Shown here in pieces: positions 38,875 through 63,292 of a DNA stretch of 64,000 bases. The number at the start of each line of letters is the position of its first letter. Positions within the stretch are counted from its first letter, which is position 1. The translations under genes were made by a program, and so were the position numbers. The notes beneath the pieces are model-generated. The model made no database searches. It was not told the origin of the DNA and saw nothing but the letters and a program-made list of their open reading frames with translations. This stretch comes from Micavibrio sp. Lineage in GTDB: Bacteria; Pseudomonadota; Alphaproteobacteria; UBA9219. The stretch spans positions 5,442 to 69,441 of the forward strand of contig DYDA01000006.1 in assembly GCA_020718105.1 (NCBI GenBank). The letters are read 5' to 3'.

Positions 38875-38949
38875 GGGTGCGTAGCTCAGCGGTAGAGCAT
38901 TACCTTCACACGGTAGGGGTCACAGGTTCAATCCCTGTCGCACCCACCA
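38875..38949 (+). tRNA. tRNA-Val (anticodon CAC), CCA encoded
   Basis: Acceptor gggtgcg/cgcaccc, anticodon loop ttCACac, T-arm acaggttcaatccctgt; 75 nt. Confidence 0.85.
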
Positions 38950-39043
38950 CGCTTTTCAAGGGGTTAGCGATTTTGTAACCAGCTCAAAACATTACAGCTG
39001 TAATGTTTGATTATGGATGCGCGGCCACACGTGAGCACTCCAT

Positions 39044-41617: not shown

Positions 41618-41864
41618 CTACCTTTGAGCCACCAAGCCAAGCATCCAGCAGCACGCTTGCCAAGCCATTAGCAGTTAAGTGCGGACGAAGACGCGCGGCG
41701 TTTGATAACGGTCCAACTTCCGTTGGAGTATCAACAATAGCTAGAATTTCTGAAGTCTCTGATTTTTCCATTGTTCCTGCCTTGTCACAAACCATGCACA
41801 AGCCTATAAGGTTGCAGCCCTGCTTCGCAAGCCATTATATACATCAAGAGAAGTCTTGAAATTG

Positions 41865-42899
41865 CTATATACTTAATGCTTCCGGCTTTTGCCTAAAGTT
41901 CAAAGCACTTACCGCCCTTCTCAAATAATCCGGTGCATGCTTGCCATAGACCTTTTCCACCGTCTTTTCGCTGTCCCCCAACAACCGAGCTACCTCAGAC
42001 AAAGGAACCCCGTCCATAATCAGCCAAGTGGCCGCTGTGTGCCGCAGGACGTGTGGGCTGGCCGTGATGCCGCACTCTTTGCAAAGCCGCCTGAAGCCCG
42101 CTTTAACAGATGCAACGCGCTTACCATGATACTCGATTACATAGTCAGCCTCGGCCAGCTCTCTGGCCGTCTTCAAACTCTCATAAACGTCATCGTTCAT
42201 CGGGACAACGGCGCGACGCTTGTTGCCCCACCCTCGCCCGAAGTCCATAAGCCTGCTTTCAAAGTCAATTTGTTTCCAAGTCAGGTCCAAAATTGCGCCG
42301 GATCGGGCGGCTGTTGATATTGCAATCTGAATGAACAGCCTCATATGGTGCGACTTGGCCTTGCTCAACAGCAACTCTACTTGTTCTCGCTTCAACCACA
42401 GGTCACGGGGCGGCGGCTGATGCACAGGCATCTTAAAACGAGGCTGATGCGCGATCCAACGATTGCCTTCCGCAAAGTGAAGTGCTGCCTTGAGCGTCCC
42501 CAACTCGCGCAGGATCGTCCCATCCGATACACCACGTTCTTTGGCATATTTCAGCAAAAGGGCATTGCTGATATGATCGGGCTGAAGGTCTCCAAAGAAC
42601 TTATTCAAGGTTCTGGTGTGATGTTCAATGGTCTTCAGTGATCTTGTATTAACCCCATGTTCCTTTTTGTAGCGATCAAGAAGATACGCCAATGTCGGCT
42701 CTGGCGGCGGCGGTGGATTGTCTAATCCCGCGATGAATTGGGAGCGGTATTGCTCGGCTGCTCTCCAATCCGTTGTCCCCGTTGAAACGCGCCTTGTCTG
42801 CATCCCTGTTTGGGTTGAGACATCGCGCTCAGTCCAGACGATATAGATTGTGCCATTGTCATGCTGCCAGAATCTGTATTGTTCTTTGTTCCTCGACAT
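41865..42899 (-). CDS. int: tyrosine-type site-specific integrase
   Basis: C-terminal catalytic region with R..HxxR..Y signature (LRHTAATWL...VEKVYGKH); 344 aa. Confidence 0.9.
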   Translation of the reverse strand: MSRNKEQYRFWQHDNGTIYIVWTERDVSTQTGMQTRRVSTGTTDWRAAEQYRSQFIAGLDNPPPPPEPTLAYLLDRYKKEHGVNTRSLKTIEHHTRTLNKFFGDLQPDHISNALLLKYAKERGVSDGTILRELGTLKAALHFAEGNRWIAHQPRFKMPVHQPPPRDLWLKREQVELLLSKAKSHHMRLFIQIAISTAARSGAILDLTWKQIDFESRLMDFGRGWGNKRRAVVPMNDDVYESLKTARELAEADYVIEYHGKRVASVKAGFRRLCKECGITASPHVLRHTAATWLIMDGVPLSEVARLLGDSEKTVEKVYGKHAPDYLRRAVSALNFRQKPEALSI

Positions 42900-46530: not shown

Positions 46531-47199
46531 ATGGTATCCTTCATGGACATTACAGGCAGACAAATACGCGCCGCACGCGGCCTCCTCGGGTGGAAGATGG
46601 AAGACCTAGCCGATAAGGCAGGCCTGACCCGTATCACCATTCGCCAAATTGAAAACGAAATAGTACAGCCTCAAGAAAAGACGCTGGCCAAGATTTACGC
46701 AGTTTTCGATAAATTCGGCGTTGAGTTCCTGCCCGACGAAGGCATGCGTATCCGCAAACAGGACACCCGCATTTATTCCGGCAAGGCTGGCTATCGGCAG
46801 TTTCTTGACCATGTCTATGAAACGCTTAAGGGTGGCGGTCATATACGCCAGTTCAACTTTAGTGACATGCGCTATCTCCCCAACGAAGAGACCTTCGTCG
46901 CGAATCACTTCCTGCGTATGGGGTCGATCAAGGGACTGGATTCAAAAGTGCTTGAAATCGGGGATGAAACTAAACACCCCCTCGCCTATTGCTCTTATCG
47001 CAAGAATGATAAAAAGTTCAAGGATATGGCCCCTTGGTACCTTTATGGCGACTATCTTGTTTTGTCGCTGAATGAAAGCGGCGGAAAACGGGAGTTTATC
47101 ACCATTCGCTCCAAACTGCTGGCTGAGCGTTATCTGAAAGAGTTCGATATCTTCTGGAACATGGCAACTTCTGAGAAAAAGAAGAAGGGCACCAAATGA
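46531..47199 (+). CDS. XRE-family HTH regulator with C-terminal domain of unknown function (paralog A)
   Basis: N-terminal Cro/C1-type HTH (IRAARGLLGWKMEDLADKAGLTRITIRQIE); paralogous to 62591..63292; 222 aa. Confidence 0.8.
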   Translation: MVSFMDITGRQIRAARGLLGWKMEDLADKAGLTRITIRQIENEIVQPQEKTLAKIYAVFDKFGVEFLPDEGMRIRKQDTRIYSGKAGYRQFLDHVYETLKGGGHIRQFNFSDMRYLPNEETFVANHFLRMGSIKGLDSKVLEIGDETKHPLAYCSYRKNDKKFKDMAPWYLYGDYLVLSLNESGGKREFITIRSKLLAERYLKEFDIFWNMATSEKKKKGTK

Positions 47200-48350
47200 C
47201 AGACTTTGAACATTGGCACGAGCAACCCGGCGGTCTTCATCTTGCGGTTGTCCCTTTCAATAAGGACAATCCTGACCATCGGGAGGCAGTTGCCAATGTC
47301 ATGCACGCCTCGATCCAAACCATTGCACAAGTCCATGGAGCCTCTTTCAGTGAAAGAGGCTTTCGCAATAATATGCGGGCCCTTTATCGTGGCGATCTTG
47401 AAGTTGATCTTTATCTGGCCAAGTGGGAGGTTTGCCAACCAAAGTCCAAGCCCATCTATCTTGGCGCAGCTATCAAGTGGAAAACGGCTGGCTTTGACGA
47501 GATGGGCAATATCCATGGCGGCATCTATGACGAGGATATTTGTATCCACAAACCACAATTGCGCCAGCTCATCAAATTAAAGCCGAGGGATAAGGCGTTT
47601 CCGAAACGAAGCCTTGCCGAGTGTTTCGATCAAATCAAGCTTCAGGATTTATTGCAGCAAGACGATCTCTGGTATCGTTTTGGCGAGATCGATCCCGACA
47701 ACACAACGATGATGCGCTCGTTGCTTCAGAATGATGCCTTGATTGGAACGCCACAGGATAGTGCTGTTCTTGAGTTCAAGCGTTTTCCCAATAATCTCTT
47801 GGATACAATCCCGATGGATGTCGAGATTATGGATATGGGCCGCGCTTCAACGCCCAATATCTTCGCCACACGATTAAGTGACGGCATTATTGACATTCGT
47901 TTTGCTGTAACCAAGGGGCAAGCCACAGCCGCCGGAAAGCCCCGCCCCGATATGCGCCCATGGCATAACGGAAATCTGCCAGAAGACCCCGCAATTTTGC
48001 ACGCCGCCCTCGCCTCCTCCATGAACGCGATTCAGAATAAGATTTTGGATAGCGAGTGGGGATCGCAGAGCGAGGCGATTGCATCCAATCCCATCATCCC
48101 GCTTCGCGCTCTTCGCCCTGAAGTTTTGAGAGACTTGTGCACGTCCTGCGCAAGTGATCTAGTCGCCAGCCCGGAAACACGGGGCAGCACCTTTATCCCG
48201 CCCATACCGGAAGCCCACGTTTTTGTCATCAAAGACAAGCCGATGCTCGATGGCCTTAAAGCCATCGGAGCCCAAAACCGCACCTTCGGCGGCAAACTCA
48301 TGATGCCAGGGGTGAATGAGATTAGATCGCGACAAGGACTAATTCTGTAG
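47196..48350 (+). CDS. hypothetical protein co-transcribed with XRE regulator A
   Basis: 384-aa ORF with ATGA start/stop overlap with the XRE gene; no recognizable motifs. Confidence 0.6.
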   Translation: MTDFEHWHEQPGGLHLAVVPFNKDNPDHREAVANVMHASIQTIAQVHGASFSERGFRNNMRALYRGDLEVDLYLAKWEVCQPKSKPIYLGAAIKWKTAGFDEMGNIHGGIYDEDICIHKPQLRQLIKLKPRDKAFPKRSLAECFDQIKLQDLLQQDDLWYRFGEIDPDNTTMMRSLLQNDALIGTPQDSAVLEFKRFPNNLLDTIPMDVEIMDMGRASTPNIFATRLSDGIIDIRFAVTKGQATAAGKPRPDMRPWHNGNLPEDPAILHAALASSMNAIQNKILDSEWGSQSEAIASNPIIPLRALRPEVLRDLCTSCASDLVASPETRGSTFIPPIPEAHVFVIKDKPMLDGLKAIGAQNRTFGGKLMMPGVNEIRSRQGLIL

Positions 48351-48870: not shown

Positions 48871-51528
48871 TTATTTGCGAAACTGCGCTGATAGTCCAGA
48901 GAGAGTTGTGTTGGGCCTAACAGCATCGTGAGGCACGAGAACGTATGTCCACGGCTTACCACCGTTCTCCATCTCGTGCTTCGTGGCCGCTTCGCACCAC
49001 TTGATGGCGGCACGGGCTTTTTGTTGAACGGCGTCCGCTTCAACTTCATCGGCACGTTTGGTTTCGATGAGGAACTTCTCTCCGTCTGTTTCTACGACAA
49101 AATCCGGTTCATATCCTTCGTTATCATTTGTGTAGATTTTGACGTCATTTCGGAGGGGTTTGAACCATTTGAGGACTTCCTTGCTATCTTCGAGTAAAAT
49201 GGCCATCTGGCGCTCGGTGTCTGAATCAAACTTCTGCTGCGGGTAAAGGCACTTTGAAAAGCCCTCAAATACCATCCCGCGTATATCCGAAACATTGGCG
49301 AGGGTCTGCCGAAAGTTTCTGACTTTTTCTCCCGCATCAATTGTCACCGCGCCCATTTTAGGCTGTTCAAAACCACGTGTGACTGAGGCCTGAAAATCCG
49401 TATAGCCAAGTTTTACATGCTCATTCATCTGCGCGTGGATTAAATCGGCGAGTTTCGTGCGGTAAAATTGGACAACATTTTTGGTTTTATCGGCATCCTT
49501 ACCCAAATATGAAGCGACATACGCCACCATCTGCCCCGCCAGCTTGTAAAGCAGGTCTGCGTGATCGTCATAAGAGACGTCATCCTTATCAATCAAAACG
49601 GATACGACGTAATCTTCTAAACGCGCTTCTTGCCCTATAGCTTCTCCCTTGGCCATTTCTTCGCGTTCAGAGGTGCGTAAATGCTGGATGAGGATTTTAT
49701 CGTCCACTGGCTGAAGGTGCGGAAGGTCTTTTGTGTTTAGATCAAAATCCGTGAACTCATAGCTATTTGATCCAATAGGTGTCACGGTCACGCGCGGAAT
49801 ATCGATGGTGTTATCGATATAGGCCTTAATTTGCCTCCGCACTATGTCTTCAACATTTGGCTTGTCCGCGATAACGTCAAGTGAGCCTTGTGCGGGCGTC
49901 ATTTTTTCCATCACGCGAGCAACCATTTTTTCCTGAACCTCTGGGTTCAAAAGGTTCCGTGAGCTTGGTAAATGTTCTTGTTCTTTAATCGCCTCAAAAA
50001 CGGCTCTTGCAATAGGCCGCTCAGCTTCAGTAAATAAAGGCTGTTGCTCTGGTTTTGTGCCTTCGCCAGAAATTATCCGTTCGATATTCGACTTAATCTC
50101 AACCGCCTGTTTGGGCTTTGCAGCAATGTCCTTACCAATTATTACACCAGTGCGGATGATAGAATGCTGATCGTTGGCCTCCTTGATAATTTCGTCAAAG
50201 CGGTCATGGGCAACGATGGTTAAACGATCCACGGCAGCAACGCCTGTGCGCTTGCCATAGGGCAAACGAAGGCCGCGCCCAATGGACTGCTCGACTAAAG
50301 TGCGTGAGTTGGCTGCACGCAAAGGCACAATGGTATAAAGGTTGGTAACGTCCCATCCTTCCTTCAGCATATTGACGTGAATGACGATTTCGGTCGGCTC
50401 ATTGGGATCTTCGACGGCAAGCAAACGTTGAACGGTCTCATCCTTTTCCTCGCCACGCTGGGCTGAGTGAACGGTGATAACGCGATCCTTGTAACGACCA
50501 TCAAAAAAGGCATCTGACTTGATCATCGCCATCAAGTTTTCGGCATGCGTCGTGTCCTGCGCCACCACAAGGATGAACGGTTTCACATAAGGTCGTGAAT
50601 TATTGTCGGCATAGACCTTCAACTCAGCCTTTGCGTTTTCATGAATGCAAATGGCGTCTTCCAGCTTGATCTTTTCGAGCTCGTCTTCCGTAAAATTCTT
50701 CGGGTTGAAGTTCTCACGCGTCGCAACCGCCGGTTCCTTCACATAGCCATCTTCCATCGCCTTATAAAGGGGGTAGCCGTAAATGACGTTTTTGAAAGGG
50801 ATGGCGTTCTTCCCGTTTTCAATTTGAGGCGTCGCGGACAGTTCAAGGCCGATAATAGGGTTCAGTTCGTTTAGTGCCCTGATGCCCGCCGAGGCGCGAT
50901 AACGGTGTGATTCATCCATCAGCAACACGAGATCGTCTAGTTTAGAAAGATATTCAAAATAGCTTTCGCCCAGATATTCCGAAAGCCGCTTGATGCGGGG
51001 TGCTGCACCTCCGCGCGTTTCGGAATTGATCTTGGAGATGTTGAAGATGTTGATATGGATGTTGTCAGCCTGTCCGTACAAATCCGTGCCGCGAATACCG
51101 CGCCCGCTTTCATAATTATCGCCCGTGATGACTTCCGGCGGCGTGATGGCAAGCTCGGCAATGCCTTGAAAGACGTATTTTGGCGTGTTGGGCGTAAAGT
51201 CGGCGATGAGCTTGTTATAGATCGTCAGGTTTGGTGCCAATACAAAGAAGTGTTTCATCCCATGCGCAAGATGCAAATAAGCAATGAATGCGCCCATAAG
51301 CCGAGTTTTGCCGACGCCCGTTGCAAGGGCAAAGCAGAGAGATGGAAAGTCTCGCTCAAAATCCTCAACACTCGGAAACTCGGACTTGATGGTCTCAAGA
51401 GCGGCGACCACGTCGCGATCTTTGTCGAGAGAGATGATCTCTGTCACACGCGCAAGAATCTCAAGCGACTCCTTCTGCGGTGTGCGGAGGGACAGACGGT
51501 TCGAAATGGCGTTGAGATGACGATTCAT
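48871..51528 (-). CDS. res: type III restriction enzyme Res subunit (SF2 helicase plus C-terminal PD-(D/E)xK nuclease)
   Basis: Walker A ATGVGKT, DEAH-like LMDESH, C-terminal PDFVVETDGEKFLIETK nuclease motif; 885 aa. Confidence 0.9.
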   Translation of the reverse strand: MNRHLNAISNRLSLRTPQKESLEILARVTEIISLDKDRDVVAALETIKSEFPSVEDFERDFPSLCFALATGVGKTRLMGAFIAYLHLAHGMKHFFVLAPNLTIYNKLIADFTPNTPKYVFQGIAELAITPPEVITGDNYESGRGIRGTDLYGQADNIHINIFNISKINSETRGGAAPRIKRLSEYLGESYFEYLSKLDDLVLLMDESHRYRASAGIRALNELNPIIGLELSATPQIENGKNAIPFKNVIYGYPLYKAMEDGYVKEPAVATRENFNPKNFTEDELEKIKLEDAICIHENAKAELKVYADNNSRPYVKPFILVVAQDTTHAENLMAMIKSDAFFDGRYKDRVITVHSAQRGEEKDETVQRLLAVEDPNEPTEIVIHVNMLKEGWDVTNLYTIVPLRAANSRTLVEQSIGRGLRLPYGKRTGVAAVDRLTIVAHDRFDEIIKEANDQHSIIRTGVIIGKDIAAKPKQAVEIKSNIERIISGEGTKPEQQPLFTEAERPIARAVFEAIKEQEHLPSSRNLLNPEVQEKMVARVMEKMTPAQGSLDVIADKPNVEDIVRRQIKAYIDNTIDIPRVTVTPIGSNSYEFTDFDLNTKDLPHLQPVDDKILIQHLRTSEREEMAKGEAIGQEARLEDYVVSVLIDKDDVSYDDHADLLYKLAGQMVAYVASYLGKDADKTKNVVQFYRTKLADLIHAQMNEHVKLGYTDFQASVTRGFEQPKMGAVTIDAGEKVRNFRQTLANVSDIRGMVFEGFSKCLYPQQKFDSDTERQMAILLEDSKEVLKWFKPLRNDVKIYTNDNEGYEPDFVVETDGEKFLIETKRADEVEADAVQQKARAAIKWCEAATKHEMENGGKPWTYVLVPHDAVRPNTTLSGLSAQFRK

Positions 51529-51533
51529 AGGGA

Positions 51534-52025
51534 TTATCCGATGTTAAGAAGTTCGCGCCGCTTGGAGTCAAAAGTATTAAACACATTCCGATTTACTGAT
51601 TTCAGTTGTTTGACAGAACGCTCAACAGATTCCATATACGAACTTTGGTCTGTGGGATGTCCTTCTTCAAGTGAAGTAAGCATATGAGACAAACAATTTT
51701 GCAAATCTGTATCATCTGGAAGCAATCCTTGGAGGGCTTTGATCGCTGCATTTGTACGAAAGGCTAGGTCGTAAGTTGGTTGATATATTTGAACCGAGCT
51801 TATCTGCTGCATAAAGTCAGATATAATATTAAAATGTGAGGCCAGCAGTTCAGCCTGTTGAATTCTTCGAGATTTGTTTGCTTCTTGAGCGGAACGTTCT
51901 GCCGCATCGCTTGAACGTTTAGAATCTCGTTTTGCCCACACGGAAATGCCTGTTCCGGTCGCGGACATACACAGGGCGAGAAAAGAGAGCCAATTTGCTA
52001 TATCGTCACTCATCGTCGCCTCCAA
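51534..52025 (-). CDS. hypothetical protein with N-terminal TM helix, between the mod remnant and res
   Basis: 163-aa ORF, 5-nt gap to res start, 20-nt overlap with the mod-fragment stop. Confidence 0.5.
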   Translation of the reverse strand: MEATMSDDIANWLSFLALCMSATGTGISVWAKRDSKRSSDAAERSAQEANKSRRIQQAELLASHFNIISDFMQQISSVQIYQPTYDLAFRTNAAIKALQGLLPDDTDLQNCLSHMLTSLEEGHPTDQSSYMESVERSVKQLKSVNRNVFNTFDSKRRELLNIG

Positions 52026-52914
52026 ACAAAGAGGGTTCGGAGGATTTGGCTTTTGCCTTGGCCTTAGCTTTCAGTTTTCGCGGGGTTGGGATATCGACTT
52101 GCTCCTCTTCGGCCAAGGGAAGGTTTTGGACGTTGAGGCTGTAATCGTCGTGGCCCCATTCGCATTTGGTCAGCACGGCGCGGGGGATTTTGCGCAGGGT
52201 TAGGTTGGGGAAGGCCTCGGCTTTGCCGCGAAACGCCGAGCAGCAGATGAGGAGGCTTCGATTGTCGCCCACTTCCTCGGACAGGGCGGCGAGTTGCGCC
52301 TGATCTAACGTTTGGGTGGTGACATAGATGAAATCCGTCTCGGTCGAATGCCCTTGCTGCCAATAAACGCTGTCACTCGGCGCATAGGTGAAGCCCATCA
52401 GCTTGCACATGGCCTGCGTCAGCATGACCGCGTTGTATTCCTTGTTGATGACAGCCTGGCTGTACTTGTCCATCGTGATGAGGGATGGTGCGAGCGCGAA
52501 ATACCGAAAACCGCCGCCGCCTTTCCACGCTGCCGCTTCGGTAATGCCACCTTTGTCCTCGCCATCAATGACTTTCTTGAGGCGCGGGATGATATGAGTA
52601 TGGCAATGCTCGCCAAGCTCAATCATAATCCAACGTCGCCTCATTTTATGGGCGACAGCACCCGTTGTGCCGGAACCAGCAAAGGAGTCGAGGACAAGGT
52701 CGTTAGGGTTGGTAGCAATATGAAGAAGTGTATGAATTAGACGTTCAGGTTTGGGTGTTGAAAAGACATCATTGCCAAAAAGAGCTAACATTTCCTTCAT
52801 GGCATCTTGATTGTGTCCAGCTAGTGTATGTTTCCATACCCGTCCCCCAAACAAGCCCTGTTCGTACGAGAGCACCGCAAGTTGCCACATATTCGTCTTC
52901 CGTGGAAAAGACAC
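52006..52914 (-). pseudogene. mod: truncated type III DNA methyltransferase (Mod), C-terminal fragment only
   Basis: Contains motif I region (VFSTPKPERLIHTLLHIATNPNDLVLDSFAGSGTTG) and a Mod-like C-terminus. The N-terminal DPPY motif and target-recognition domain are absent. Its 5' 146 nt overlap the upstream ORF in another frame. Confidence 0.65.
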
Positions 52915-53428
52915 CAGATTCTATCGTTTCCTTCTGTGTGCGCCTATAAGCCTCGGTCGCAGCCCTACTGATTTCTTTTGTGTCTAATTGATTGGCTTTT
53001 TCTTTCTCGATTTGCTCATTGAAAGATTTGTGCAGCTTTCCTAAGACAATGATCTCTTCATATCGCAGAGAATCGATAATGTCCGCATAATATAAAAACT
53101 CATCGGCTCTCAATACTTTTGCTGCCTTTTGCCCTGCGATAATGCGCGCAAGAAGTCGAAGATTTGTTCGCGCGGTTCCTTCCTGTGCAGCTCGCATGTA
53201 GCGATAAACGATTGCTGCCACTTCATCAACCTCACAGGCTTCCCATATATCTTTTTCTCCCGCGCTGATTTCTAAGAGTAAAATTTCTCTGGCTGCACTC
53301 AGTCGTATTTTGAAAAGGTTTTGAACCGCAATTCCTGCTACAGAGCCGCCAAAAACATCGAAAGCCCCTGCGATGTCTCCAATAAGGGCGCTATAATACT
53401 GCGGAAGATGTATCGTTTTATCTTCCAT
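52769..53428 (-). CDS. hypothetical protein, last gene of the SNF2 operon
   Basis: 219-aa ORF; start overlaps the MBL gene stop by 11 nt; no recognizable motifs. Confidence 0.55.
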   Translation of the reverse strand: MEDKTIHLPQYYSALIGDIAGAFDVFGGSVAGIAVQNLFKIRLSAAREILLLEISAGEKDIWEACEVDEVAAIVYRYMRAAQEGTARTNLRLLARIIAGQKAAKVLRADEFLYYADIIDSLRYEEIIVLGKLHKSFNEQIEKEKANQLDTKEISRAATEAYRRTQKETIESGVFSTEDEYVATCGALVRTGLVWGTGMETYTSWTQSRCHEGNVSSFWQ

Positions 53429-54371
53429 AGGAAGGCCTGCTTTTATAAATGTTTCTTAGGCTATCTAGGTTCATCGAAAGAAAATGATGCTTTTTGATGG
53501 CAAAGTCCTTGTACGAAGACACTTTTGTTGAGTTTGATATCAAATTGTAGACCCTAAAGACACTATTGTGCGGGGGTAAAGATTGGGCAATTATGTCGCC
53601 TGTTTTTGTTGTAAAGATCGGGATATCTAGGTCGAACAAACGATCTCGAACATCTTGTCTAGGATGTTCAAACTGATTGTCATAATTGCTGCTGCATACA
53701 GCCAGTTGAGGTCGGACACGTTCCAAAAAGTTTTTTGAGTTAGTAGGACAGTCTGCTCCATGATGAGCTAAAATAAGGATGTCAATTTCTCTCTTGAAAA
53801 TGCCACATCCCCTGAGGCGAGAGCCAATGTTCACATCTTCAACGTCGCCAAGACTTGCAACATTAAAACAGCCCTCACGAAACACCTTGACTGTCGAATT
53901 GTCATTGGCTTTTTCGAAAAAGATCTTAGGGCCATAAAAAACGTTTCTGTATCCAAGTTCTTCTGCTGATTTCAATCCATTAATGTAGTTTGGGTTTACA
54001 CACACACAACTCACAGGGGTGCCATCTATGGTTCCTTTGGCTTCATAATTCTCGATGGCTTTTTGGCATGCCTTGCCATTATCACTTTCGGGCAAATATC
54101 CGGGGTATTCAACCTGTTTGGGTTTTAGCGTTTCAAGAATACTTTTGAGATCAGAAAAAGTGCAGTGATCTTGATCCCAGCTGGTAATATGTAAGCAATC
54201 AATAAACTGCTTACCGCAAAGTTCCATTTCTTGGTGTATATTTGCGCGGTTAACGTCATTCAGTCGCGCTTCAATCAAGGTAAACTTTCCTGCACCAAAG
54301 TATGAAAAGGAAGAACCCGCTTGCCCCAGCTGGTATGCGCGAAAGCGAGTGACAATTTCTTGTGCGGCCAT
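53418..54371 (-). CDS. MBL-fold metallo-hydrolase related to the ComEC/Rec2 beta-lactamase domain
   Basis: ITSWDQDHC (S/H-x-D-x-DH) and LAHHGADCPTNSKNFLERVRPQLAVCSS resemble ComEC motifs (HADQDHIGG / KVAHHGSKTSS...FL..V.P..A..S); 317 aa. Confidence 0.7.
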   Translation of the reverse strand: MAAQEIVTRFRAYQLGQAGSSFSYFGAGKFTLIEARLNDVNRANIHQEMELCGKQFIDCLHITSWDQDHCTFSDLKSILETLKPKQVEYPGYLPESDNGKACQKAIENYEAKGTIDGTPVSCVCVNPNYINGLKSAEELGYRNVFYGPKIFFEKANDNSTVKVFREGCFNVASLGDVEDVNIGSRLRGCGIFKREIDILILAHHGADCPTNSKNFLERVRPQLAVCSSNYDNQFEHPRQDVRDRLFDLDIPIFTTKTGDIIAQSLPPHNSVFRVYNLISNSTKVSSYKDFAIKKHHFLSMNLDSLRNIYKSRPSYGR

Positions 54372-54862
54372 TATAACTCTTCCTTTCTGCCTCCAGAAGT
54401 TTTAGCGGCTCGAGACCTTTCTATTCCCCAAACGGCCTCAGAAACTTCTTCAAGTTTTTTAATAAATTTATCGACGTTGAGGCCAGCAACGAAAGCAAAG
54501 GCATAAAACCCAATTTCGCTTGCATCAGGCTGGATGCTGGATTCCAGCACGATCAACCCTGCCTTAAGAAACAGATAACTCGCACCGCCACAAGTAAGAC
54601 TCGCGATTGGGCGTAAGAAATACCATACCTGCCACCTGGAGTCCCATTGATCGTAAACACAGACGTTCAAATAGACTCCTCTCAAACAATAGAGGAAGCC
54701 ACCAAGTCCACCAGAAAATGCACAGATAAGCCCAACTTTGTATGGAACTAAAAGGGGTTCATGACCTGCTAACACAAAAGCAATCCCTGCAAGGTTAGCG
54801 ACGGCACATAAGACAAGGTAAAAGATAATAACTACAATCATTCGAGCCCCCACCTCGCGCAA
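54371..54862 (-). CDS. small integral membrane protein (3-4 predicted TM helices)
   Basis: Hydrophobic 163-aa ORF; overlaps SNF2 3' end by 25 nt and abuts the MBL gene start. Confidence 0.65.
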   Translation of the reverse strand: MREVGARMIVVIIFYLVLCAVANLAGIAFVLAGHEPLLVPYKVGLICAFSGGLGGFLYCLRGVYLNVCVYDQWDSRWQVWYFLRPIASLTCGGASYLFLKAGLIVLESSIQPDASEIGFYAFAFVAGLNVDKFIKKLEEVSEAVWGIERSRAAKTSGGRKEEL

Positions 54863-57846
54863 AACAGCGGTTCAATCTCATGCCTGCTGTCCTGCAATTG
54901 TTTTTCTAGTTGATTAATAAGCTCTTCGCGTCTTGCGTCAACTTTGTCTTGGCTGGTGAAAAGTTCGTGCCGCTTTTGTGAGCGGCGTTTTTCAAAGGCA
55001 GCTTTTTGTTTTTGAAACGCCAGCTTTTCCGCTAGACTTATCAATTGCTTAGACTGGCGGTCTGCCTCGCGGATGTCGCGGTCAAGTTGCTTGAGTTCAA
55101 GCTCTAGCCCCGTCTTCAGGTCTTCGGCCCAGCGGTCGAGCTTATCCAGCTCTTCCTCAAAATAGTGGTGATTGCTGGCTTCCGATTCGTTCAAAAGCAA
55201 GGTCATCCGGTTCTGGCGGGCGGTTTCGATGATGGCTGCATAAGGACATGAGCGGAAATCTTCCGAGCACGATGCTGAAAGGAGAAGCAGCTTCTCGCCA
55301 AACTCTGGTAGGAGGATCACGCCGCTTTCATTGCAGGCGGTGAAGATGAGAGATTCCGTTTCCTCAAACGTATTGATCGTCAGCTTGTCCAGCCAGAGCC
55401 AGCCTCGTTTGCCGCACTGTTCGTCCAGCAACGCAACTTTGTGCGGATGAGAAGAAAGATCAAACGTCAACGTCACGAGAGGAGTCTCGATATCACGCCC
55501 CTTTTGGATTACACGCTCGCCCATAAGATCGGACAGGCGATAAGGATAGCCTGTGACAGGAACCTTGGCCGTCCCCTTATGGAGCCGCTCCAATGGATCG
55601 ATGGCAGCTACAGCTTTTGTTTCCAGATAATGATAAATGGGAGTGCGGTCGCCTTCGCTGGGGCGTTCGCCTTTGGCAATAAAATCGGGATCGTCTCCGA
55701 AAATTAGTTTCTCGTCGTTGAAGACGAAGGTTCCATCGTAGATGAATTTCGTCAGCTCCCAAAAATGATGGGTCACGATATCAAGGCGCTGTTTGGTTGC
55801 TTCCATACTGAATTTCAAATGTCGTGTGACATCCTCGTCGAAATGCTCGAACAACATATTGCGCGTTTCGGCTATGCGGGCTTGGATTGGCTCTTCCATT
55901 TCGGATTGAAGGCGCGCAAAGGCTTCTTCAATTTCCTTGGGGTGGCGGCAGGTTTCAAAGATATCCAAAATACGCTTTTCAAAATCAATGCCGGACTCAA
56001 CGCGGCCTAGCACCTCATCTGATGATCCAAAGACACCGTCAAAAAGCTGAAACTTCTCTTTCAGTAGTTCATAGATACGCTGGTCAGCGAGATTGTCTTG
56101 GTTCAGGAAGTTAATGACGACCACGTCGTGCTTTTGGCCATAACGATGGCATCGGCCAATGCGCTGCTCAATGCGCTGAGGGTTCCAAGGCAGGTCGTAA
56201 TTGACAATCAAAGAACAGAACTGAAGGTTGATGCCTTCGGCGGCAGCTTCAGTGGCGATCATCACCTCGGCATGATCCCGGAAGAAATCAACAAGCGCCA
56301 TACGCATATCGACATTCTTGGAGCCGGAGATACGGCCTGTGGTGGCGTTCTTCTCCTGCCACATGCCGTAGATGTCTTTGGAAAGCTCATCCGTATTCTG
56401 TCCATTAAAAGTCACGACCTTGCCGCGAAAGCCGTTGTCTTCAAGATATTCTTTCAGATAACGCTGGGTGCGGCTGGATTCCGTGAAAACGAGAGCTTTG
56501 CGCGCGCCGCCCAACACACCCATACGGGAAAAACCGGATTGAAGTGCGGATAAAAGCGCTTTGGCTTTGGTCTCTATTTTGATGGAACGGGCAAGGGCGG
56601 CAAAGCCTTCGATCTGTTTGATCTCGTAGTTCAGTTTTTCAATGTCGATGTCGCTGTGGTTGGGTTGGGTGGCAGCGTGTTCTTCTTCCTCTGCTGCCTC
56701 GGCATATTCGATATCGATATCCTGTCCGAATATAAACGCGCCGCGCAAGTTCAGTTTCTCTTCTTTGCGGGTCTCTCGCATTTTCTCAAGGCGCTCTTTG
56801 ATGGTTTGCAACGTGCCAACCAATGCATAAGCTGACGATGCTAGAAGCTTGCGGATAACGAGAACGACCAGCTTTCTCTGTGCCCACGGAATAGCATAGG
56901 TATCTTGCTGGAGGAGGAAGTCAGAGACCTCGTCATAAAGTCTTTGTTCTTCTGCTGACAAACTAAACGGCTGCAGCATGGCTTCGCGTTTCGTATAACG
57001 GATATACTCCAGAACTTGCCGCCGAAGCGTGCGCTTAACAAAAGGCGCGAGGCGTGATTTGAGGTCGTCGATATTTGGGTTATTATTTCCATAAGCGGAT
57101 TTGAACGTATCAATGCCACCAAAGATCCTGTCATCAATCAATGAGGCAAGGCCGTAAAGCTCCAGAAGGGAGTTTTGCAGCGGTGTTGCTGTCAAAAGCA
57201 CTTTTTTGTGATCAGCCAGAGCCGCCTGAATCGTGCGGCCCATTTTGTTGTCTTTTTTGAAGAGATTTCGCAGCTTGTGCGCTTCATCGATCACAACCAT
57301 ATGCCATGGCATTGCTTTAAGTGCGTCGGCGTAACGATTGGCAAACTGATAAGAGATAATCACAACGCCTTTGAAGTCAAAAGGATCGCTGCCACTCTGC
57401 TGTCGTTCTGTGTAATTGCTGCTTTCAAGCACAAGGGTTGGAAGGTTGAATTTTTCTTCAAGCTCTATTGACCATTGGCGGCGCAGAACAGCGGGGCATA
57501 TGACAACAAGCCGTCGCTTATGCTCTGCCCAAAGTTGGCAAAGCAAGATACCAGCCTCAATAGTTTTTCCAAGGCCGACCTCATCGGCCAGCATAACGCC
57601 TTTGGAAAGCGGCGAGCGTAGTGCAAAGAGAGCCGCTTCAATTTGGTGTGGATTTAAATCTACGGCAGCATCAAAAAGCGAGGTGGTAAGGCGATCAACA
57701 ACGGTGGCGGACTTCTTTATCGAAAGCTCATGTGCAAAGTATTTCGCGTGATAGGGAGTGATGGACGTCTTTGTTCCTTTGTTCTCCTGCCAAAAAGGTT
57801 CTGTTTCTGCTTTCATTCGTCCAGTATCCAGTCCCAATTTCCACAC
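54838..57846 (-). CDS. SNF2-family helicase/ATPase with ~400-aa C-terminal extension including a coiled-coil
   Basis: SNF2 N-domain (DLNPHQIEAAL, LADEVGLGKT, DEAH-like VIDEAHKLRN) and helicase C-domain (GGEGINLQ..., QRIGRCHRYGQ); 1002 aa. Confidence 0.9.
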   Translation of the reverse strand: MWKLGLDTGRMKAETEPFWQENKGTKTSITPYHAKYFAHELSIKKSATVVDRLTTSLFDAAVDLNPHQIEAALFALRSPLSKGVMLADEVGLGKTIEAGILLCQLWAEHKRRLVVICPAVLRRQWSIELEEKFNLPTLVLESSNYTERQQSGSDPFDFKGVVIISYQFANRYADALKAMPWHMVVIDEAHKLRNLFKKDNKMGRTIQAALADHKKVLLTATPLQNSLLELYGLASLIDDRIFGGIDTFKSAYGNNNPNIDDLKSRLAPFVKRTLRRQVLEYIRYTKREAMLQPFSLSAEEQRLYDEVSDFLLQQDTYAIPWAQRKLVVLVIRKLLASSAYALVGTLQTIKERLEKMRETRKEEKLNLRGAFIFGQDIDIEYAEAAEEEEHAATQPNHSDIDIEKLNYEIKQIEGFAALARSIKIETKAKALLSALQSGFSRMGVLGGARKALVFTESSRTQRYLKEYLEDNGFRGKVVTFNGQNTDELSKDIYGMWQEKNATTGRISGSKNVDMRMALVDFFRDHAEVMIATEAAAEGINLQFCSLIVNYDLPWNPQRIEQRIGRCHRYGQKHDVVVINFLNQDNLADQRIYELLKEKFQLFDGVFGSSDEVLGRVESGIDFEKRILDIFETCRHPKEIEEAFARLQSEMEEPIQARIAETRNMLFEHFDEDVTRHLKFSMEATKQRLDIVTHHFWELTKFIYDGTFVFNDEKLIFGDDPDFIAKGERPSEGDRTPIYHYLETKAVAAIDPLERLHKGTAKVPVTGYPYRLSDLMGERVIQKGRDIETPLVTLTFDLSSHPHKVALLDEQCGKRGWLWLDKLTINTFEETESLIFTACNESGVILLPEFGEKLLLLSASCSEDFRSCPYAAIIETARQNRMTLLLNESEASNHHYFEEELDKLDRWAEDLKTGLELELKQLDRDIREADRQSKQLISLAEKLAFQKQKAAFEKRRSQKRHELFTSQDKVDARREELINQLEKQLQDSRHEIEPLFCARWGLE

Positions 57847-58721: not shown

Positions 58722-61700
58722 CTACGAAAGTTCAAGAGCAAGGATATTGGGCGTCCGCTCTGGATCAGCGTGCCTTAACAGGCCATAGCCTATTCCCGCC
58801 ATGCCGCACATCAGTCCCGGCGTCGTTGCTCCGCCCGGCATGTCACAGTCCCATCTTTCTTTTTTCCGATAGTCAGCCATGATAGCGGATAGCATGGCGC
58901 AGGCCCTGTCATGATCTCCTGTAGCAAGAAAGATTTCCGAGTTGCCAAGATTTCCGTGACACAGGCATTGATTGCTGATGAGGCCCTGCTTCCATGTCGC
59001 CTCGCAAGCCAAACGCACACGCTCGTCGCAAAAATCCTTTCCAAGAACGTCCGGCATTTTCAGAAGAGCAAGACCGATGCCCGGAGCGCCATAGCACCAA
59101 TGACAGGTTGGAGCACCGCCGCGCGCGTCTACCCATGTTTGTTGTTTCTCATCGAAAAAACTTTGTTCATAGGCAAACGCTTGTTGCGCAAGCCCTGTCC
59201 ATTTTTCTTCTTTCGTATACTGCGCCCATTCGGCCAAGGCCCACGCAATTCCCGTGACACCGTGAGAAAGTCCGCCCAGTCTCTTTTCTTCCGTTTGAAC
59301 AGTCTTCCACGTGACGCCAAATTCTTGCTTCTCAGATGAAGCTGCCAATCGGTCAGCAGCGGCAGCGGCAACCTGAAGCGCTTCCGTCGATCCGTTCTGG
59401 CGATAGACACCCATTGCGACAAGAAGAACACCAGCAGCGCCGTAAATAAGATCGTTGGATTCATCTTTTTTGACCAATCTTTCTAACACAGCAAAGGCGT
59501 TTTTTCTCCCACTTCCCTCATCGCAATTCAAAGCGTCCGACAAAAGGCTGTCCGCGTAAATCAAGCCAGCGATTCCGTTAAACGCTCCGCAGCCATGCCC
59601 GCGAGAGCGGTCGGCAAAAACTTTCCGAATGGTGGCAAGAGCGTCCGTGGCTATAGCCTTGAATCTCTCGTCACGCGTCTGTTTATACAATTGCCCCATG
59701 AAAAGGCCAATGCCCGGCGTTCCATCATAAAGAGATAGCCTTGGAACGTCAGCCGTGTAGCTTTCTTTATCGACCGGTAACAAACCGGACCATATCGGCG
59801 TATCATTGACGTAATAGGCGCTGTCAAGCAACGATTGGCCTATCTTTGATGCCTCATAAATAAGCTCATCTGAGGAAGTTTTCTTTCTCTTACAAAAAGA
59901 AATAGGCCTGTTTGGGTTTTCTTCTTTCTCCGCTGGCATTGTACTTTTGAGTGCCATACGGATGGTTTCCGTTTGCGGAACCAACAATTTTTCGAGAGAT
60001 CGCAAACGCCTTTTAACAGACTGCATTCCCGTGCAAGCAAAAAAGTTCTTGTGAGGTCTTCCTGTTGACGAAAAAATATCTTTTGAATCCGGTGTTGTCC
60101 AGAAATAGGGCACGTCCCCATTCCACAAATCCTCGACCTCGCTAGGGATGATGGATTCAAGATGGTGCGCCAACAGGACGCCCGCCCAAAGTTCGCCGCC
60201 GATCATCATATCGCTTTCGACGGCATCGCCCAAAACAGAGGGGTGTGCCATAGACTGGAGAATATGAACATAGTCCCGCGTGTTTCTCGTTACGTATCGA
60301 ACGGGGACGGATCGAAAGACATTCAAGATGCTCCGTGGGCCAAGCAGAAAGACCCGATGTTTCTTGAATGTGGAAATGGCGGACTCAAAGCCAGCAATAA
60401 TCTCCCCAAGATGCTCATACGCCCGGCACGGGATGCCATCGACATATGGAATATTCTTTTCCTGTGGCATAGAAACTTTTTGCATCACAAACCGCGCGTC
60501 GTCCCTGCCGATATTTTCCATCATCAGCGCTTCCGTCGGCGCTGGCTGTTCGCCACAGGCACCAATGGCGCTTAGATCGTACACACCTCCAGGCCCCATC
60601 AGGCGATATGGCAGTAAGCCGGTTCTGAATAAAAGGTCTTCAAAGGCCTGAAGGTAGCATTGCTGAAAAAACGCGCTCTTTCCTGAGGGCCTTATTGAGC
60701 GGTCAAACATTACCTCAACATCAACGAGATAAGGATCGCCCCCAGAAGCGATCAAGTTTTCATGGTGCAAATCCGTAATTCCCAGCAACCACGAAATCGC
60801 AAGGAGAGACCCAAGCTTCTTGTAATATATGGGAATGTCGGAAGGTAACGCATCCGTGTTCGCCTCGACAAACGAGCAATAGCCATAGGTCCCACAATCA
60901 AGAACCGAAACGGTTTTGGGCGCAGGCGCGTCCGAGCAAGAAGCAAACCAATTGATGAGCGCATTATAAGCGACATCTGCGGCAAGCGAGCGCGGCTTAT
61001 AAACAAGGATGCCTTCCGCGAAGTGAAGTATAGCCACGACATGTCCGCCGCAATGTGCATCGCCCGTGCCCCAGTGTATCGACTGAAGGGTTCTTAAAGA
61101 TAACCCCAAAGAAGACTCAACTGTCGCTTTATCTTTTGCCAAACGTTCCAGTGCCTTTACGGAAGCATTAATTGTGTTCGCAGCAGTCGTGGAGACCAAG
61201 CGCCACAAAACGGGGTATTTACCCCAAAACCTACGTTGGTTTTCTTTCTCGCCAAGGGAACCCACAAAAGCGCCGAACCTCTCTTCCGGAGTTTGCGAGG
61301 ATTTGTTCTTCCGCTTGATTCGAAAAAGATTCGCCTCCATCGCCATACTTGGAAGCATGAGGTTCGCTAATCTTTGGGAAAAATAAATATCATATTCTGC
61401 CAGCAACCTTTCACTGTCCGAGCCAAGCCCAACGGCCTGCAAGGCATTGATGGCTTGAACCATACGTTTCATAGCATGGGAGAATAACGGCGCGCATAAG
61501 GCCTCAAAGCCATATCCGGATTCTCTCTCATGCTCGCTGGAAAAAGCGCCAGCTTCTTCTGAAATCATTTCAGGGTCACACCAATACGGAGCAATCTCAC
61601 CGTATAGTGCGTCGGAAGCAAAACGGCTTTCATTCAGAACGCCGCCTATCCTTTCAAGCGCTCCGCCCATCATGCCTACGTGTTTGCGCAGAAGATTTTT

Positions 61701-61847
61701 CTTCCGTTGGAAATAACGGTTGCTCCACCATTTTATCTTGGGTTCCGTTGCTGCGGCGACATAGTCTGATAAATCGTTTTGATGCCCAGTTTGCGCAAAT
61801 CGCTCGGATAGTGATAGTGCACGGCTTAAAATGGTTTCTTCGATCAT
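58722..61847 (-). CDS. lanM: class II lanthipeptide synthetase (LanM-like: N-terminal dehydratase domain plus C-terminal LanC-like cyclase)
   Basis: Kinase-like catalytic loop ITDLHHENLI (DxHxxN) and DVEVMFD in the N-terminal half. LanC-like GxxG repeats and CHG motif in the C-terminal half (GTPGIGLFMGQLY, GAAGVLLV, GVTGIAWAL, WCYGAPGIGLALL, CHGNLGNSEIF, GMAGIGYGLL). 1041 aa. Confidence 0.85.
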   Translation of the reverse strand: MIEETILSRALSLSERFAQTGHQNDLSDYVAAATEPKIKWWSNRYFQRKKNLLRKHVGMMGGALERIGGVLNESRFASDALYGEIAPYWCDPEMISEEAGAFSSEHERESGYGFEALCAPLFSHAMKRMVQAINALQAVGLGSDSERLLAEYDIYFSQRLANLMLPSMAMEANLFRIKRKNKSSQTPEERFGAFVGSLGEKENQRRFWGKYPVLWRLVSTTAANTINASVKALERLAKDKATVESSLGLSLRTLQSIHWGTGDAHCGGHVVAILHFAEGILVYKPRSLAADVAYNALINWFASCSDAPAPKTVSVLDCGTYGYCSFVEANTDALPSDIPIYYKKLGSLLAISWLLGITDLHHENLIASGGDPYLVDVEVMFDRSIRPSGKSAFFQQCYLQAFEDLLFRTGLLPYRLMGPGGVYDLSAIGACGEQPAPTEALMMENIGRDDARFVMQKVSMPQEKNIPYVDGIPCRAYEHLGEIIAGFESAISTFKKHRVFLLGPRSILNVFRSVPVRYVTRNTRDYVHILQSMAHPSVLGDAVESDMMIGGELWAGVLLAHHLESIIPSEVEDLWNGDVPYFWTTPDSKDIFSSTGRPHKNFFACTGMQSVKRRLRSLEKLLVPQTETIRMALKSTMPAEKEENPNRPISFCKRKKTSSDELIYEASKIGQSLLDSAYYVNDTPIWSGLLPVDKESYTADVPRLSLYDGTPGIGLFMGQLYKQTRDERFKAIATDALATIRKVFADRSRGHGCGAFNGIAGLIYADSLLSDALNCDEGSGRKNAFAVLERLVKKDESNDLIYGAAGVLLVAMGVYRQNGSTEALQVAAAAADRLAASSEKQEFGVTWKTVQTEEKRLGGLSHGVTGIAWALAEWAQYTKEEKWTGLAQQAFAYEQSFFDEKQQTWVDARGGAPTCHWCYGAPGIGLALLKMPDVLGKDFCDERVRLACEATWKQGLISNQCLCHGNLGNSEIFLATGDHDRACAMLSAIMADYRKKERWDCDMPGGATTPGLMCGMAGIGYGLLRHADPERTPNILALELS

Positions 61848-61984: not shown

Positions 61985-62452
61985 TTATATTGGGCCTTCG
62001 GGCACTTTGAATTTGCAGCGACCGCTTTGACAATATGCTGTTTGGCAGGCCGTTGTTTGGCAAGCCGTCGTTTGGCAAACCGTTGTTTGGCAAATAGTCG
62101 TGCCACAATTCCCAGTCAGATAAGCCCGTCCAGACATATTCTGCGCGGAACGAACCATGGGCGCTTCGCCAGCAGGATTGATCGTGACAATCTTGACAAG
62201 CTCTTTGCGATCCATGCCCTTCAGCACTTCTTCAAGATGAACCAGATCAACCTTAAGCTCCTTGCCGACCTGCTGCTGCCATCCCTTCCGATTCTTGATG
62301 AAAGGATCGGCCATCTGGGGATTCATCCACATCAATTCGACAAATTGCGACAGAACATCCTCCCCTGAGGCCTTCTCTTTCGCTTTTGCTTTGATCCCAT
62401 CATACTTTCCACGAGTCATAGCGGAAACGGTTTTTCTGTGTCTTTCTAACAT
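61985..62452 (-). CDS. lanA: lanthipeptide-like precursor: NHLP-type long leader plus Cys/Thr-rich repetitive core
   Basis: Start ATG 62452 with RBS AAGGAGGA. Leader resembles nitrile-hydratase leader peptides (ELMWMNPQMADPFIKNRKGW...GKELKVDL). C-terminus NCGTTICQTTVCQTTACQTTACQTAYCQSGRCKF has four CQTT pentapeptide repeats. 137 bp upstream of lanM. Confidence 0.7.
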   Translation of the reverse strand: MLERHRKTVSAMTRGKYDGIKAKAKEKASGEDVLSQFVELMWMNPQMADPFIKNRKGWQQQVGKELKVDLVHLEEVLKGMDRKELVKIVTINPAGEAPMVRSAQNMSGRAYLTGNCGTTICQTTVCQTTACQTTACQTAYCQSGRCKFKVPEGPI

Positions 62453-62590
62453 GAACCAAGTCCTCCTTATATGGTTGTGCGAGCTTTTCATTCTGTGGAG
62501 GGCCGATGCCCGCTTCAATCGGCCTTTTCATATAAAATCTGTAACCGCGTTATATTTTTTCGTTCTTTGTGCTCGAAAAGCAGATAAAAG

Positions 62591-63292
62591 CTACTTTCCA
62601 GATTTTTTCTTGCTTTGTCTCCCTTTTGCATGAACGGGGGTCTGCGTGGGCATTGTCTTGTCCCACAGAGACGCAAACTGCGCACGAAACGCATCGGCCA
62701 TAGCAGATGACTTGACAGATACTATCTTCGTCCATGCTCCGGAAGTCGTCGGAAAAGGCGCGTACTTGTCGCCGTACACGCAAAACGAAATTGTATCGAC
62801 GTATTTTCTTGATATTGAGCGAATGTTCGCACCTTGAATAATTTCGAGCTCTGGTTCCGCTTTCGTTATCAGGCATTGAATGCTAACAGAACTCGCTTGA
62901 TTAAATAGTTCGTCCATCTTTTCAAAGTTACGCCCAAATACCTCCCTAAGGTCGTCCATAGACGATGCCATGATCGCAATATGTCCCCCGTTCTTTTGAA
63001 CGGTTTGTTTGATGTCATCGAAAAGCTGGCTCATTCCGTTCGGCACCGTAAAAACAGATATGTCCTCAAAACATCGGCGCACGCCATCAGCATCCATAAA
63101 CTCAATCCCTGCGCTTTCTATTGCCTGACGGATGAGTCTCATCGTTGAATCGCGAGGCGAGATATGTCCCAATTCAAGCTTGCGAATTGTCGCAACCGAT
63201 AATTGTGCCGCATTTGCCAGATCTTCTTGTGACCAATCAAGCAACGCCCGAGCCGCTTTCATCTGTTTTGCGCTGAGGGGGCGGATAATCAT
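62591..63292 (-). CDS. XRE-family HTH regulator with C-terminal domain of unknown function (paralog B), upstream of lanA-lanM
   Basis: N-terminal HTH (MKAARALLDWSQEDLANAAQLSVATIRKLE), same architecture and lysine-rich tail as 46531..47199; 233 aa. Confidence 0.8.
   Translation of the reverse strand: MIIRPLSAKQMKAARALLDWSQEDLANAAQLSVATIRKLELGHISPRDSTMRLIRQAIESAGIEFMDADGVRRCFEDISVFTVPNGMSQLFDDIKQTVQKNGGHIAIMASSMDDLREVFGRNFEKMDELFNQASSVSIQCLITKAEPELEIIQGANIRSISRKYVDTISFCVYGDKYAPFPTTSGAWTKIVSVKSSAMADAFRAQFASLWDKTMPTQTPVHAKGRQSKKKSGK

Follow-up and report, generated by a model that had tools for sequence, protein, structure and literature searches.

A probable deletion across a cargo gene and mod in a helicase-linked type III restriction-modification locus of Micavibrio sp.

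The window analysed here is a stretch of 64,000 nucleotides (64 kb) of contig DYDA01000006.1 of Micavibrio sp., and it contains, on its minus strand, a type III restriction-modification (R-M) operon in which only half of the methyltransferase gene mod accompanies an apparently intact endonuclease gene res. We consider it likely, from the sequence comparisons presented below, that this locus is a decayed copy of a type III system linked to a SNF2 helicase gene, and that one deletion of ~0.95 kb across the boundary between mod and the cargo gene preceding it (coding for a protein of 219 amino acids (aa), hereafter the 219 gene) left the module dead. The finding itself is one of ordinary gene decay, the locus being a degenerate member of the type III R-M kind. 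The features on which this proposal is based are the following:

52006-52838, minus strand: mod remnant, equivalent to codons ~287-560 of intact relatives.
52839-52852, minus strand: putative deletion junction between the 219-family gene and mod, holding a run of five G (G5) at 52844-52848.
52769-53428, minus strand: 219-aa open reading frame (ORF), a cargo gene of an uncharacterised helical, winged-helix-like family, now chimeric.
48871-51528, minus strand: type III Res of 885 aa, with an SF2 helicase followed by a C-terminal PD-(D/E)xK endonuclease.

An ORF of 302 aa with a GTG start was present at 52006-52914 of the minus strand, and an earlier note, made from the sequence of the window, had described it as the C-terminal third of Mod. 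Its mod-derived part comprised 52006-52838 only, since the first ~25 codons were 219 gene sequence read in another frame, and in public gene calls the product (P0001) begins at M39 and has 264 aa. The remnant amounted to 276 of ~560 aa (49%), that is, the C-terminal half rather than a third. The Pfam N6_N4_Mtase profile matched the ORF with positions 140-217 of 221 only (1.1e-19) and the PADLOC MTase_III model PDLC03636 with positions 300-560 of 575 only. Inspection of the motifs agreed with the note in that motif I and the C-terminus were kept, while the DPPY motif and the target-recognition domain (TRD) were missing. The S-adenosylmethionine (SAM)-binding motifs retained were motif X (TPKPERL), motif I (DSFAGSGTT) and motifs II-III, including RRWIMIE, and a C-terminal domain of ~190 aa was kept as well. 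In full-length relatives the sequence FIDPPYNTG is found near residue 55-80; neither the ORF nor any other part of the 64 kb contained the catalytic motif IV, (D/N/S)PP(Y/F). The TRD, located between motifs VIII and X, was also absent, the homology of the remnant beginning at codon 287, just before motif X. No trace of the N-terminal Mod domain was found anywhere in the window and no native mod start codon was present in the remnant. With both DPPY and TRD missing, the remnant is predicted to be incapable of methyl transfer to a specific DNA site.

Thousands of Mod relatives were obtained in a protein search, the complete ones having ~525-560 aa and a variable central region. When six full-length Mods (503-529 aa) were compared by tblastn with the whole window, the sole match ran from 52863 to 52009, with nothing else at E<0.1, and the matches began at query residues ~207-260. 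This ruled out a hidden, frameshifted N-terminal half. The check for frameshifted remnants upstream that the note had proposed thus returned none; neither a full-length mod recoverable by correcting a frameshift nor an upstream Mod-like sequence with DPPY was found in the 64 kb. Nor would the missing ~860 bp fit in, since the 219-aa ORF borders directly on the remnant. Over the shared span, the remnant was 87% identical in amino acid sequence to the Mod of L016 and 85% to that of L013 (related loci are numbered with the prefix L); near-identical DNA was not found in E. coli genomes or plasmids.

The limits of homology on both sides defined the junction closely. DNA homology to mod started at 52836 in the comparison with L013 (codon 287 of 560) and at 52838 with L016 (whose Mod has 562 aa), beginning at the TGG of WKHTLAGH, which corresponds to codon 287. 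Homology to the 219 family stopped at ...ALVRTGLV, residue ~193, at about 52852. A single junction of ~14 nt therefore links the 219 gene at codon ~193-197 to codon 287 of mod in a different frame, and ~0.95 kb is missing relative to L013, comprising ~30 codons of the 219 gene lost jointly with mod codons 1-286. The last ~26 residues of the 219-aa ORF were mod DNA read out of frame up to the stop at 52769, and the conserved C-terminal ~30-40 residues of the 219 family were missing from the window member. The 302-aa and 219-aa ORFs overlap by 146 nt in different frames, an overlap that the note had recognised. The two frames are offset by one base, and dropping one G of the G5 run would give a 473-aa in-frame fusion of the 219 protein to the C-terminal half of Mod (219-ModC), which would restore neither DPPY nor TRD; this offset and its fusion potential may be a coincidence. 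We saw no transposase, repeat or att-like sequence at the junction and no run of N. The Logan assembly of run ERR628383 was 100% identical to window positions 42006-62800 (20.8 kb), spanning the junction, and the identical 264-aa product was recorded on 5 contigs. The junction is real and not an assembler-specific artefact.

The window was compared with related loci that have a full-length mod. In L006/L007 the order was SNF2, a 157-aa transmembrane (TM) protein, a metallo-beta-lactamase (MBL)-like gene, a 218-aa gene, Mod (546 aa) and Res, the 218-aa member being 55% identical to the 219-aa protein of the window and located immediately upstream of Mod. In L013/L014, SNF2 and two other genes (265-aa and 335-aa in L013) preceded a 227-aa gene immediately upstream of Mod (560 aa), and a 192-aa gene separated Mod from Res. 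In L016, the intact relative closest to the window, an OLD nuclease lay between SNF2 and Mod (562 aa) and a 160-aa gene between Mod and Res. The Salmonella IncFIB plasmid NZ_CP117699.1 (L096), on which the RefSeq gene names are generic, carried a helix-turn-helix (HTH) gene, SNF2, IS256, an Abi gene, Mod (562 aa) and Res. The earlier note had held that the 219-aa ORF and the MBL gene occupied the place of the lost half of Mod, which was not borne out: in L006/L007 and L013/L014 a gene of the 219 family normally abuts a full-length mod, so that genes of this kind belong upstream of an intact mod and do not stand in for what was lost. Its further suggestion of a gene cassette inserted into mod did not hold as it was put, although the region is indeed a cassette slot, as described below. 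A second apparent example of a truncated Mod, P0002 (242 aa, 83% identical), was discarded, as an N run of L012 lies inside a full-length mod and the truncation was a scaffold-gap artefact; short Mod entries in metagenome protein sets need to be checked for scaffold gaps.

In order to place the locus in its family, metagenomes were searched with the C-terminal domain of the SNF2 protein, which gave at least 388 relatives, and 80 loci (L016-L095) were analysed. The gene order of the family was SNF2 helicase, variable defence cargo, Mod, an optional small gene and Res, with SNF2 followed by Mod and Res wherever the loci held sufficient downstream DNA. The N-terminal half of Mod was found directly upstream in all 31 of the metagenomic loci holding the C-terminal half. 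The distance from SNF2 to mod ranged from 21 bp to 7.9 kb in 41 loci, with SMC-like ATPases, AIPR, OLD nucleases, AAA_21+DUF4276, HerA and HATPase_c proteins and, when the Salmonella plasmid L096 is included, Abi genes and IS256 as cargo; it is this varied cargo that supports the cassette-slot part of the earlier proposal. The gap between mod and res was 0-88 bp in 17 of 27 loci and 0.47-1.45 kb in the other 10. The core of the family is thus SNF2-Mod-Res with two cargo slots, and the TM, MBL-like and 219 genes of the window are cargo. The SNF2 protein of the window bears the C-terminal domain specific to the head gene of the family; as to the full-length Mod of other members, Res was present in the window together with only half of Mod. 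Other forms of decay were found in L019 (a 3'-truncated mod and no res), in L058 and L078 (only the C-terminal 50-210 residues of Res, directly following SNF2) and in L056, L039 and L072 (no Mod or Res within 6-10 kb downstream of SNF2). The SNF2 gene was kept in all six of these copies, and the truncation pattern of the window was seen in none of L019, L058 and L078. Family copies are also carried by Salmonella and Klebsiella plasmids. No named or described SNF2 plus type III system with two slots was found in the literature searched, and the RefSeq names of the SNF2-Mod-Res parts are generic only; the family appears to be undescribed.

We propose that one deletion (~0.95 kb relative to L013) would have taken the last ~30 codons of the 219 gene together with mod codons 1-286; an imprecise exchange of cargo with the same endpoints would lead to the identical outcome. 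Since the C-terminus of the 219 gene was lost at the same junction, both lesions would be explained by one deletion across the boundary of the 219 gene and mod, or by a cargo exchange that ended imprecisely at this place, and the deletion is favoured because the 219 gene directly adjoins mod on two different backbones (L006 and L013). The lost mod segment would have comprised the N-terminal domain, motif IV (DPPY), motifs V-VIII and the whole TRD, leaving the SAM-binding half of the fold and the C-terminal domain, which are not in frame with the ORF that precedes them.

In EcoP15I, one Mod reads the DNA sequence with its TRD and the second Mod keeps the target adenine in its DPPY pocket; the contacts with Res are made by the methyltransferase domain and the C-terminal domain (CTD) of Mod (PMC4490356). 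The level of Res rises when Mod is expressed, and it is Mod that guides Res to DNA (PMC3874151). By analogy with EcoP15I, a remnant lacking the N-terminal domain, motifs IV-VIII and the TRD would support neither methylation nor DNA recognition. As Mod supplies recognition and also contacts and stabilises Res, the latter would be left unguided and R-M switched off, and we infer that the type III module is off. An intact res beside a broken mod is understandable on these grounds, because Res depends on Mod and loss of the system via mod would be harmless. Among the three readings offered in the earlier note, that of a dead R-M system fitted the results best.

Res itself was, as the note had stated, apparently intact, and it was end-to-end colinear with the Res proteins of L006, L013 and L016. 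Its PADLOC match was REase_III (4.7e-229). In the helicase part, PF04851 (ResIII) matched at 1.7e-21 and PF00271 (Helicase_C) at 21.5 bits, just under the 23.5-bit cutoff, and the motifs GVGKT, DESH and QSIGRGLR were present. The endonuclease part matched PF19778 with 24.4 bits against a cutoff of 23.4, and YEPDFVVE...ETK was conserved with L006. Residues 1-879 aligned with 1-888 of the L006 Res (54% identity), and the full-length identity was 79% to L013 and 82% to L016.

The surviving half of mod showed little sign of erosion. It had no deviations at 97 columns at least 95% conserved in 122 relatives (the median of the others being 1), its ratio of nonsynonymous to synonymous divergence (dN/dS) against L013 was 0.04, and the branch dN of the window (~0.047) fell between those of L013 (~0.027) and L012 (~0.056). 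No further damage was seen in Res, SNF2 or the remnant, which suggests that the event was probably recent; it cannot be dated, because dS between the window and its relatives is saturated (>1).

Several points weigh against the explanation proposed here. The clean frame of 276 codons, with all conserved positions kept, would equally be expected under continued selection. Deletion and imprecise cassette replacement are inseparable at this locus, since different cargo is found in the closest intact relatives (76-87% aa identity). Sequence alignment to the solved Mods stops at motif II, and we infer only by analogy that the ~190-aa C-terminal region of the remnant would be equivalent to the Res-contacting CTD of EcoP15I. 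Finally, the search for another Mod covered the 64-kb window.

The truncation might instead be a by-product of cassette turnover, an incoming TM/MBL-like/219 block having replaced earlier cargo by illegitimate recombination, with the right crossover inside mod, at the boundary between TRD and motif X, and not at the mod start codon; the functional outcome would be the same. Such turnover is consistent with the high variability of the slot in 41 loci, with the other cargo of the close backbones (the OLD nuclease of L016, the 265-aa and 335-aa genes of L013) and with the recurrence of the window cargo on the distant backbone of L006, where SNF2 and Res were 43% and 54% identical to those of the window as against 61% for the TM protein and 55% for the 219 gene. 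We nevertheless regard it as unlikely, since an ancestor in which the 219 gene abutted mod, as on L006 and L013, followed by an internal deletion, requires fewer events, and since the junction bore none of the transposase, repeat or att-like sequences sought there. A sequencing or assembly artefact concealing a full-length gene has a practically negligible probability: the scaffold gap that produced P0002 on L012 shows that such cases occur, but the absence of an N run, the identical 20.8 kb of the Logan assembly, the 5 contigs and the 219 gene abutting the remnant, with no space for the missing 858 bp, all speak against it here.

Two further readings would keep Res active. In one of them, the remnant would have been retained for a function, still binding and stabilising Res and thereby giving a modification-independent nuclease that acts with SNF2 and the cargo; in a variant, a change in the length of the G5 run would fuse the winged-helix-like 219 protein to the remnant as a new DNA-binding adaptor for Res. 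The open frame with its conserved positions, the branch dN that is not raised, the otherwise intact operon and the EcoP15I contacts of the CTD and methyltransferase domain with Res, which Mod stabilises, would fit this idea, and, if it were true, the locus would represent a methylation-independent nuclease module guided or licensed by the SNF2 helicase and cargo proteins. It is very unlikely. The re-wiring of Res to SNF2 and other partners, as the note had put it, found no support, because the same partners accompany an intact Mod in 31 of 31 loci; the truncation was seen in 0 of these 31 metagenomic loci, nor was it seen in the intact L006, L012, L013 and L016, and the remnant product formed a single-member protein cluster. 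The translationally coupled start of the relatives is lost, the start codons inside the 219 ORF lack a convincing ribosome-binding site, the neighbouring 219 gene was damaged by the same event, and an untargeted Res in a cell with unmethylated DNA would be inert or self-toxic. In the other reading, a second, compatible mod elsewhere in the genome would supply Mod in trans and Res would still be guided. Res is intact and the part of the genome examined was 64 kb, which leaves space for such a gene, but scarcely any probability can be given to it: no second PF01555-type sequence was found in the window, Mod and Res were always adjacent in related loci, and type III Res binds its cognate Mod by specific contacts (PMC4490356), and a foreign Mod would normally bring its own Res. 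Decay of the R-M module by a deletion over the 219/mod boundary is thus the explanation that we prefer.

The 219 gene, which was damaged together with mod, belongs to a small protein family with members of 208-239 aa. The AF2 model of the intact relative P0122 (pLDDT 89) was helical with a winged-helix-like C-terminus, and Foldseek searches with it gave weak winged-helix similarities only. A genome scan with the 219-family alignment found 4 loci only, none with a SNF2/Mod/Res system. Outside the system (L002, L004/L005 and L015), the family adjoins a DUF5677, Hypoth_Ymh or Fic/MerR protein, and the pair formed with Hypoth_Ymh overlaps by 8 nt and lies on an integrase island with Abi_2, which suggests that the 219 family is a portable accessory or regulatory module.

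The operon is tightly packed on the minus strand between 48.8 and 57.9 kb of the window, in the order SNF2, TM, MBL-like, 219, mod remnant, small gene and Res. The genes and related positions not listed above are:

54838-57846, minus strand: SNF2 helicase, first gene of the system, with Pfam SNF2-rel_dom and Helicase_C.
54371-54862, minus strand: 163-aa membrane cargo protein, 61% identical to its 157-aa positional counterpart in L006.
53418-54371, minus strand: 317-aa MBL-fold-like cargo protein, with weak profile matches only.
51534-52025, minus strand: small N-terminally membrane-anchored protein (159-163 aa) in the mod-res slot, with a homologue in L016.
L016 14808-15290, L013 7580-8158 and L012 1720-2286: small mod-res slot genes in relatives.
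38875-42899: start of the island, with tRNA-Val (38875-38949), an SMC/AAA-like gene of 857 aa and a tyrosine integrase (41865-42899).

The N-terminal ~690 aa of the SNF2 protein were DrmD-like and the C-terminal ~310 aa formed a family-specific domain ending in a coiled coil; the protein was colinear with those of L013 (76%), L016 (78%), L006 (43%) and the Salmonella plasmid copy L096 (47%). The HTH gene found ahead of SNF2 in L013 and on the Salmonella plasmid was absent from the window and from L016. No family match was obtained for the 163-aa membrane protein in Pfam, PADLOC or NCBIfam searches. The 317-aa protein matched weakly an NCBIfam model of the ComEC/Rec2 C-terminal region (1e-8), the AHM metallo-beta-lactamase model and PADLOC PDC-M48B; it had no Pfam match and no BLAST similarity to the MBL-like gene of L006. 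The family of the small slot protein is rare, with 12 representatives among 1.8 billion proteins; the protein is homologous (E 2e-12) to the 160-aa protein that occupies this slot in L016 and shares its N-terminus with the 192-aa protein of L013. A scan for promoters and terminators in the 48.5-58.5 kb region gave counts at chance level.

The whole locus sits in a mobilisable island adjoining tRNA-Val, which also carries ArdC, a relaxase and MobC. At an identity of at least 90%, housekeeping proteins clustered solely with a metagenome-assembled genome labelled Bdellovibrionales by its source. The 857-aa SMC/AAA-like ATPase (39044-41617, minus strand) lies between tRNA-Val and the integrase. 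At 46531-48350 of the plus strand, an HTH_3 regulator (222 aa) is translationally coupled to a 384-aa protein without a family match, and a second HTH_3 gene is located at 62591-63292; the ATPase and the HTH_3 genes may be further defence or addiction modules. The island also bears a LanM-type lanthipeptide synthetase (TIGR03897, 8e-221) at 58722-61847 of the minus strand. Directly upstream, a 177-aa ORF (61985-62518, minus strand; 155 aa in the public gene call) ends in Cys/Thr-rich repeats (GNCGTTICQTTVCQTTACQTTACQTAYCQSGRC) and looks like a lanthipeptide precursor with an unusually long leader. The LanM-like gene was rejected as a part of the R-M system, no LanM match having been found in the 80 related loci.

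The locus represents a routine case of a type III system dying safely by losing mod first, and it shows that a 264-aa protein annotated as "site-specific DNA-methyltransferase" should not, even beside an intact Res, be taken as a sign of a functional R-M system. The more interesting lead is the widespread family of type III systems headed by a DrmD-like SNF2 protein, with its two slots for defence cargo. If this family is indeed undescribed, it would offer a tractable case for asking what a SNF2 motor contributes to type III restriction, and also how an operon gains and loses defence cargo, with the host system sometimes paying for it, as here.

The family resembles the classical type III systems (EcoP15I and EcoP1I, Mod2Res1) in having adjacent mod and res genes, a beta-class Mod (PF01555 in the relatives) with the TRD between motifs IV-VIII and X/I-III, matching the solved Mods 6k0w and 4zcf, and a Res composed of an SF2 helicase and a PD-(D/E)xK nuclease. 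It differs from them by the SNF2 helicase gene upstream and the two slots for unrelated genes, and the window in particular by a mod without codons 1-286; the ~190-aa C-terminal domain of the family Mod does not align by sequence with the EcoP15I CTD. When mod is turned off in phase-variable type III systems (phasevarions), methylation and restriction cease at the same time, the cell survives and res may stay intact, the switching being reversible through simple-sequence repeats. In contrast, the window has irreversibly lost 286 codons, and a change in the length of its short G5 run would yield a fusion only and not Mod. The SNF2 protein is similar to DrmD of class 1 DISARM in its core (residues 55-690; PADLOC 3e-204, NCBIfam DISARM_DrmD_b 2e-204), although its score of 681 bits was below the 950-bit equivalog cutoff and its C-terminal 310 aa were unrelated to the model. 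The DrmA, DrmB and DrmC models matched none of the operon proteins, which did not classify as class 1 DISARM; a further difference from DISARM is that the methylase belongs to the type III kind, a Mod with Res as its partner. Type I hsd loci carrying prrC or Abi genes likewise have unrelated defence genes between the genes of their restriction subunits, and the family is comparable to them in embedding OLD, AIPR, SMC-like ATPase, HerA, AAA_21+DUF4276 and Abi genes; its host, in contrast, is a type III module with a SNF2 partner and with two slots, one from SNF2 to mod and the other from mod to res.

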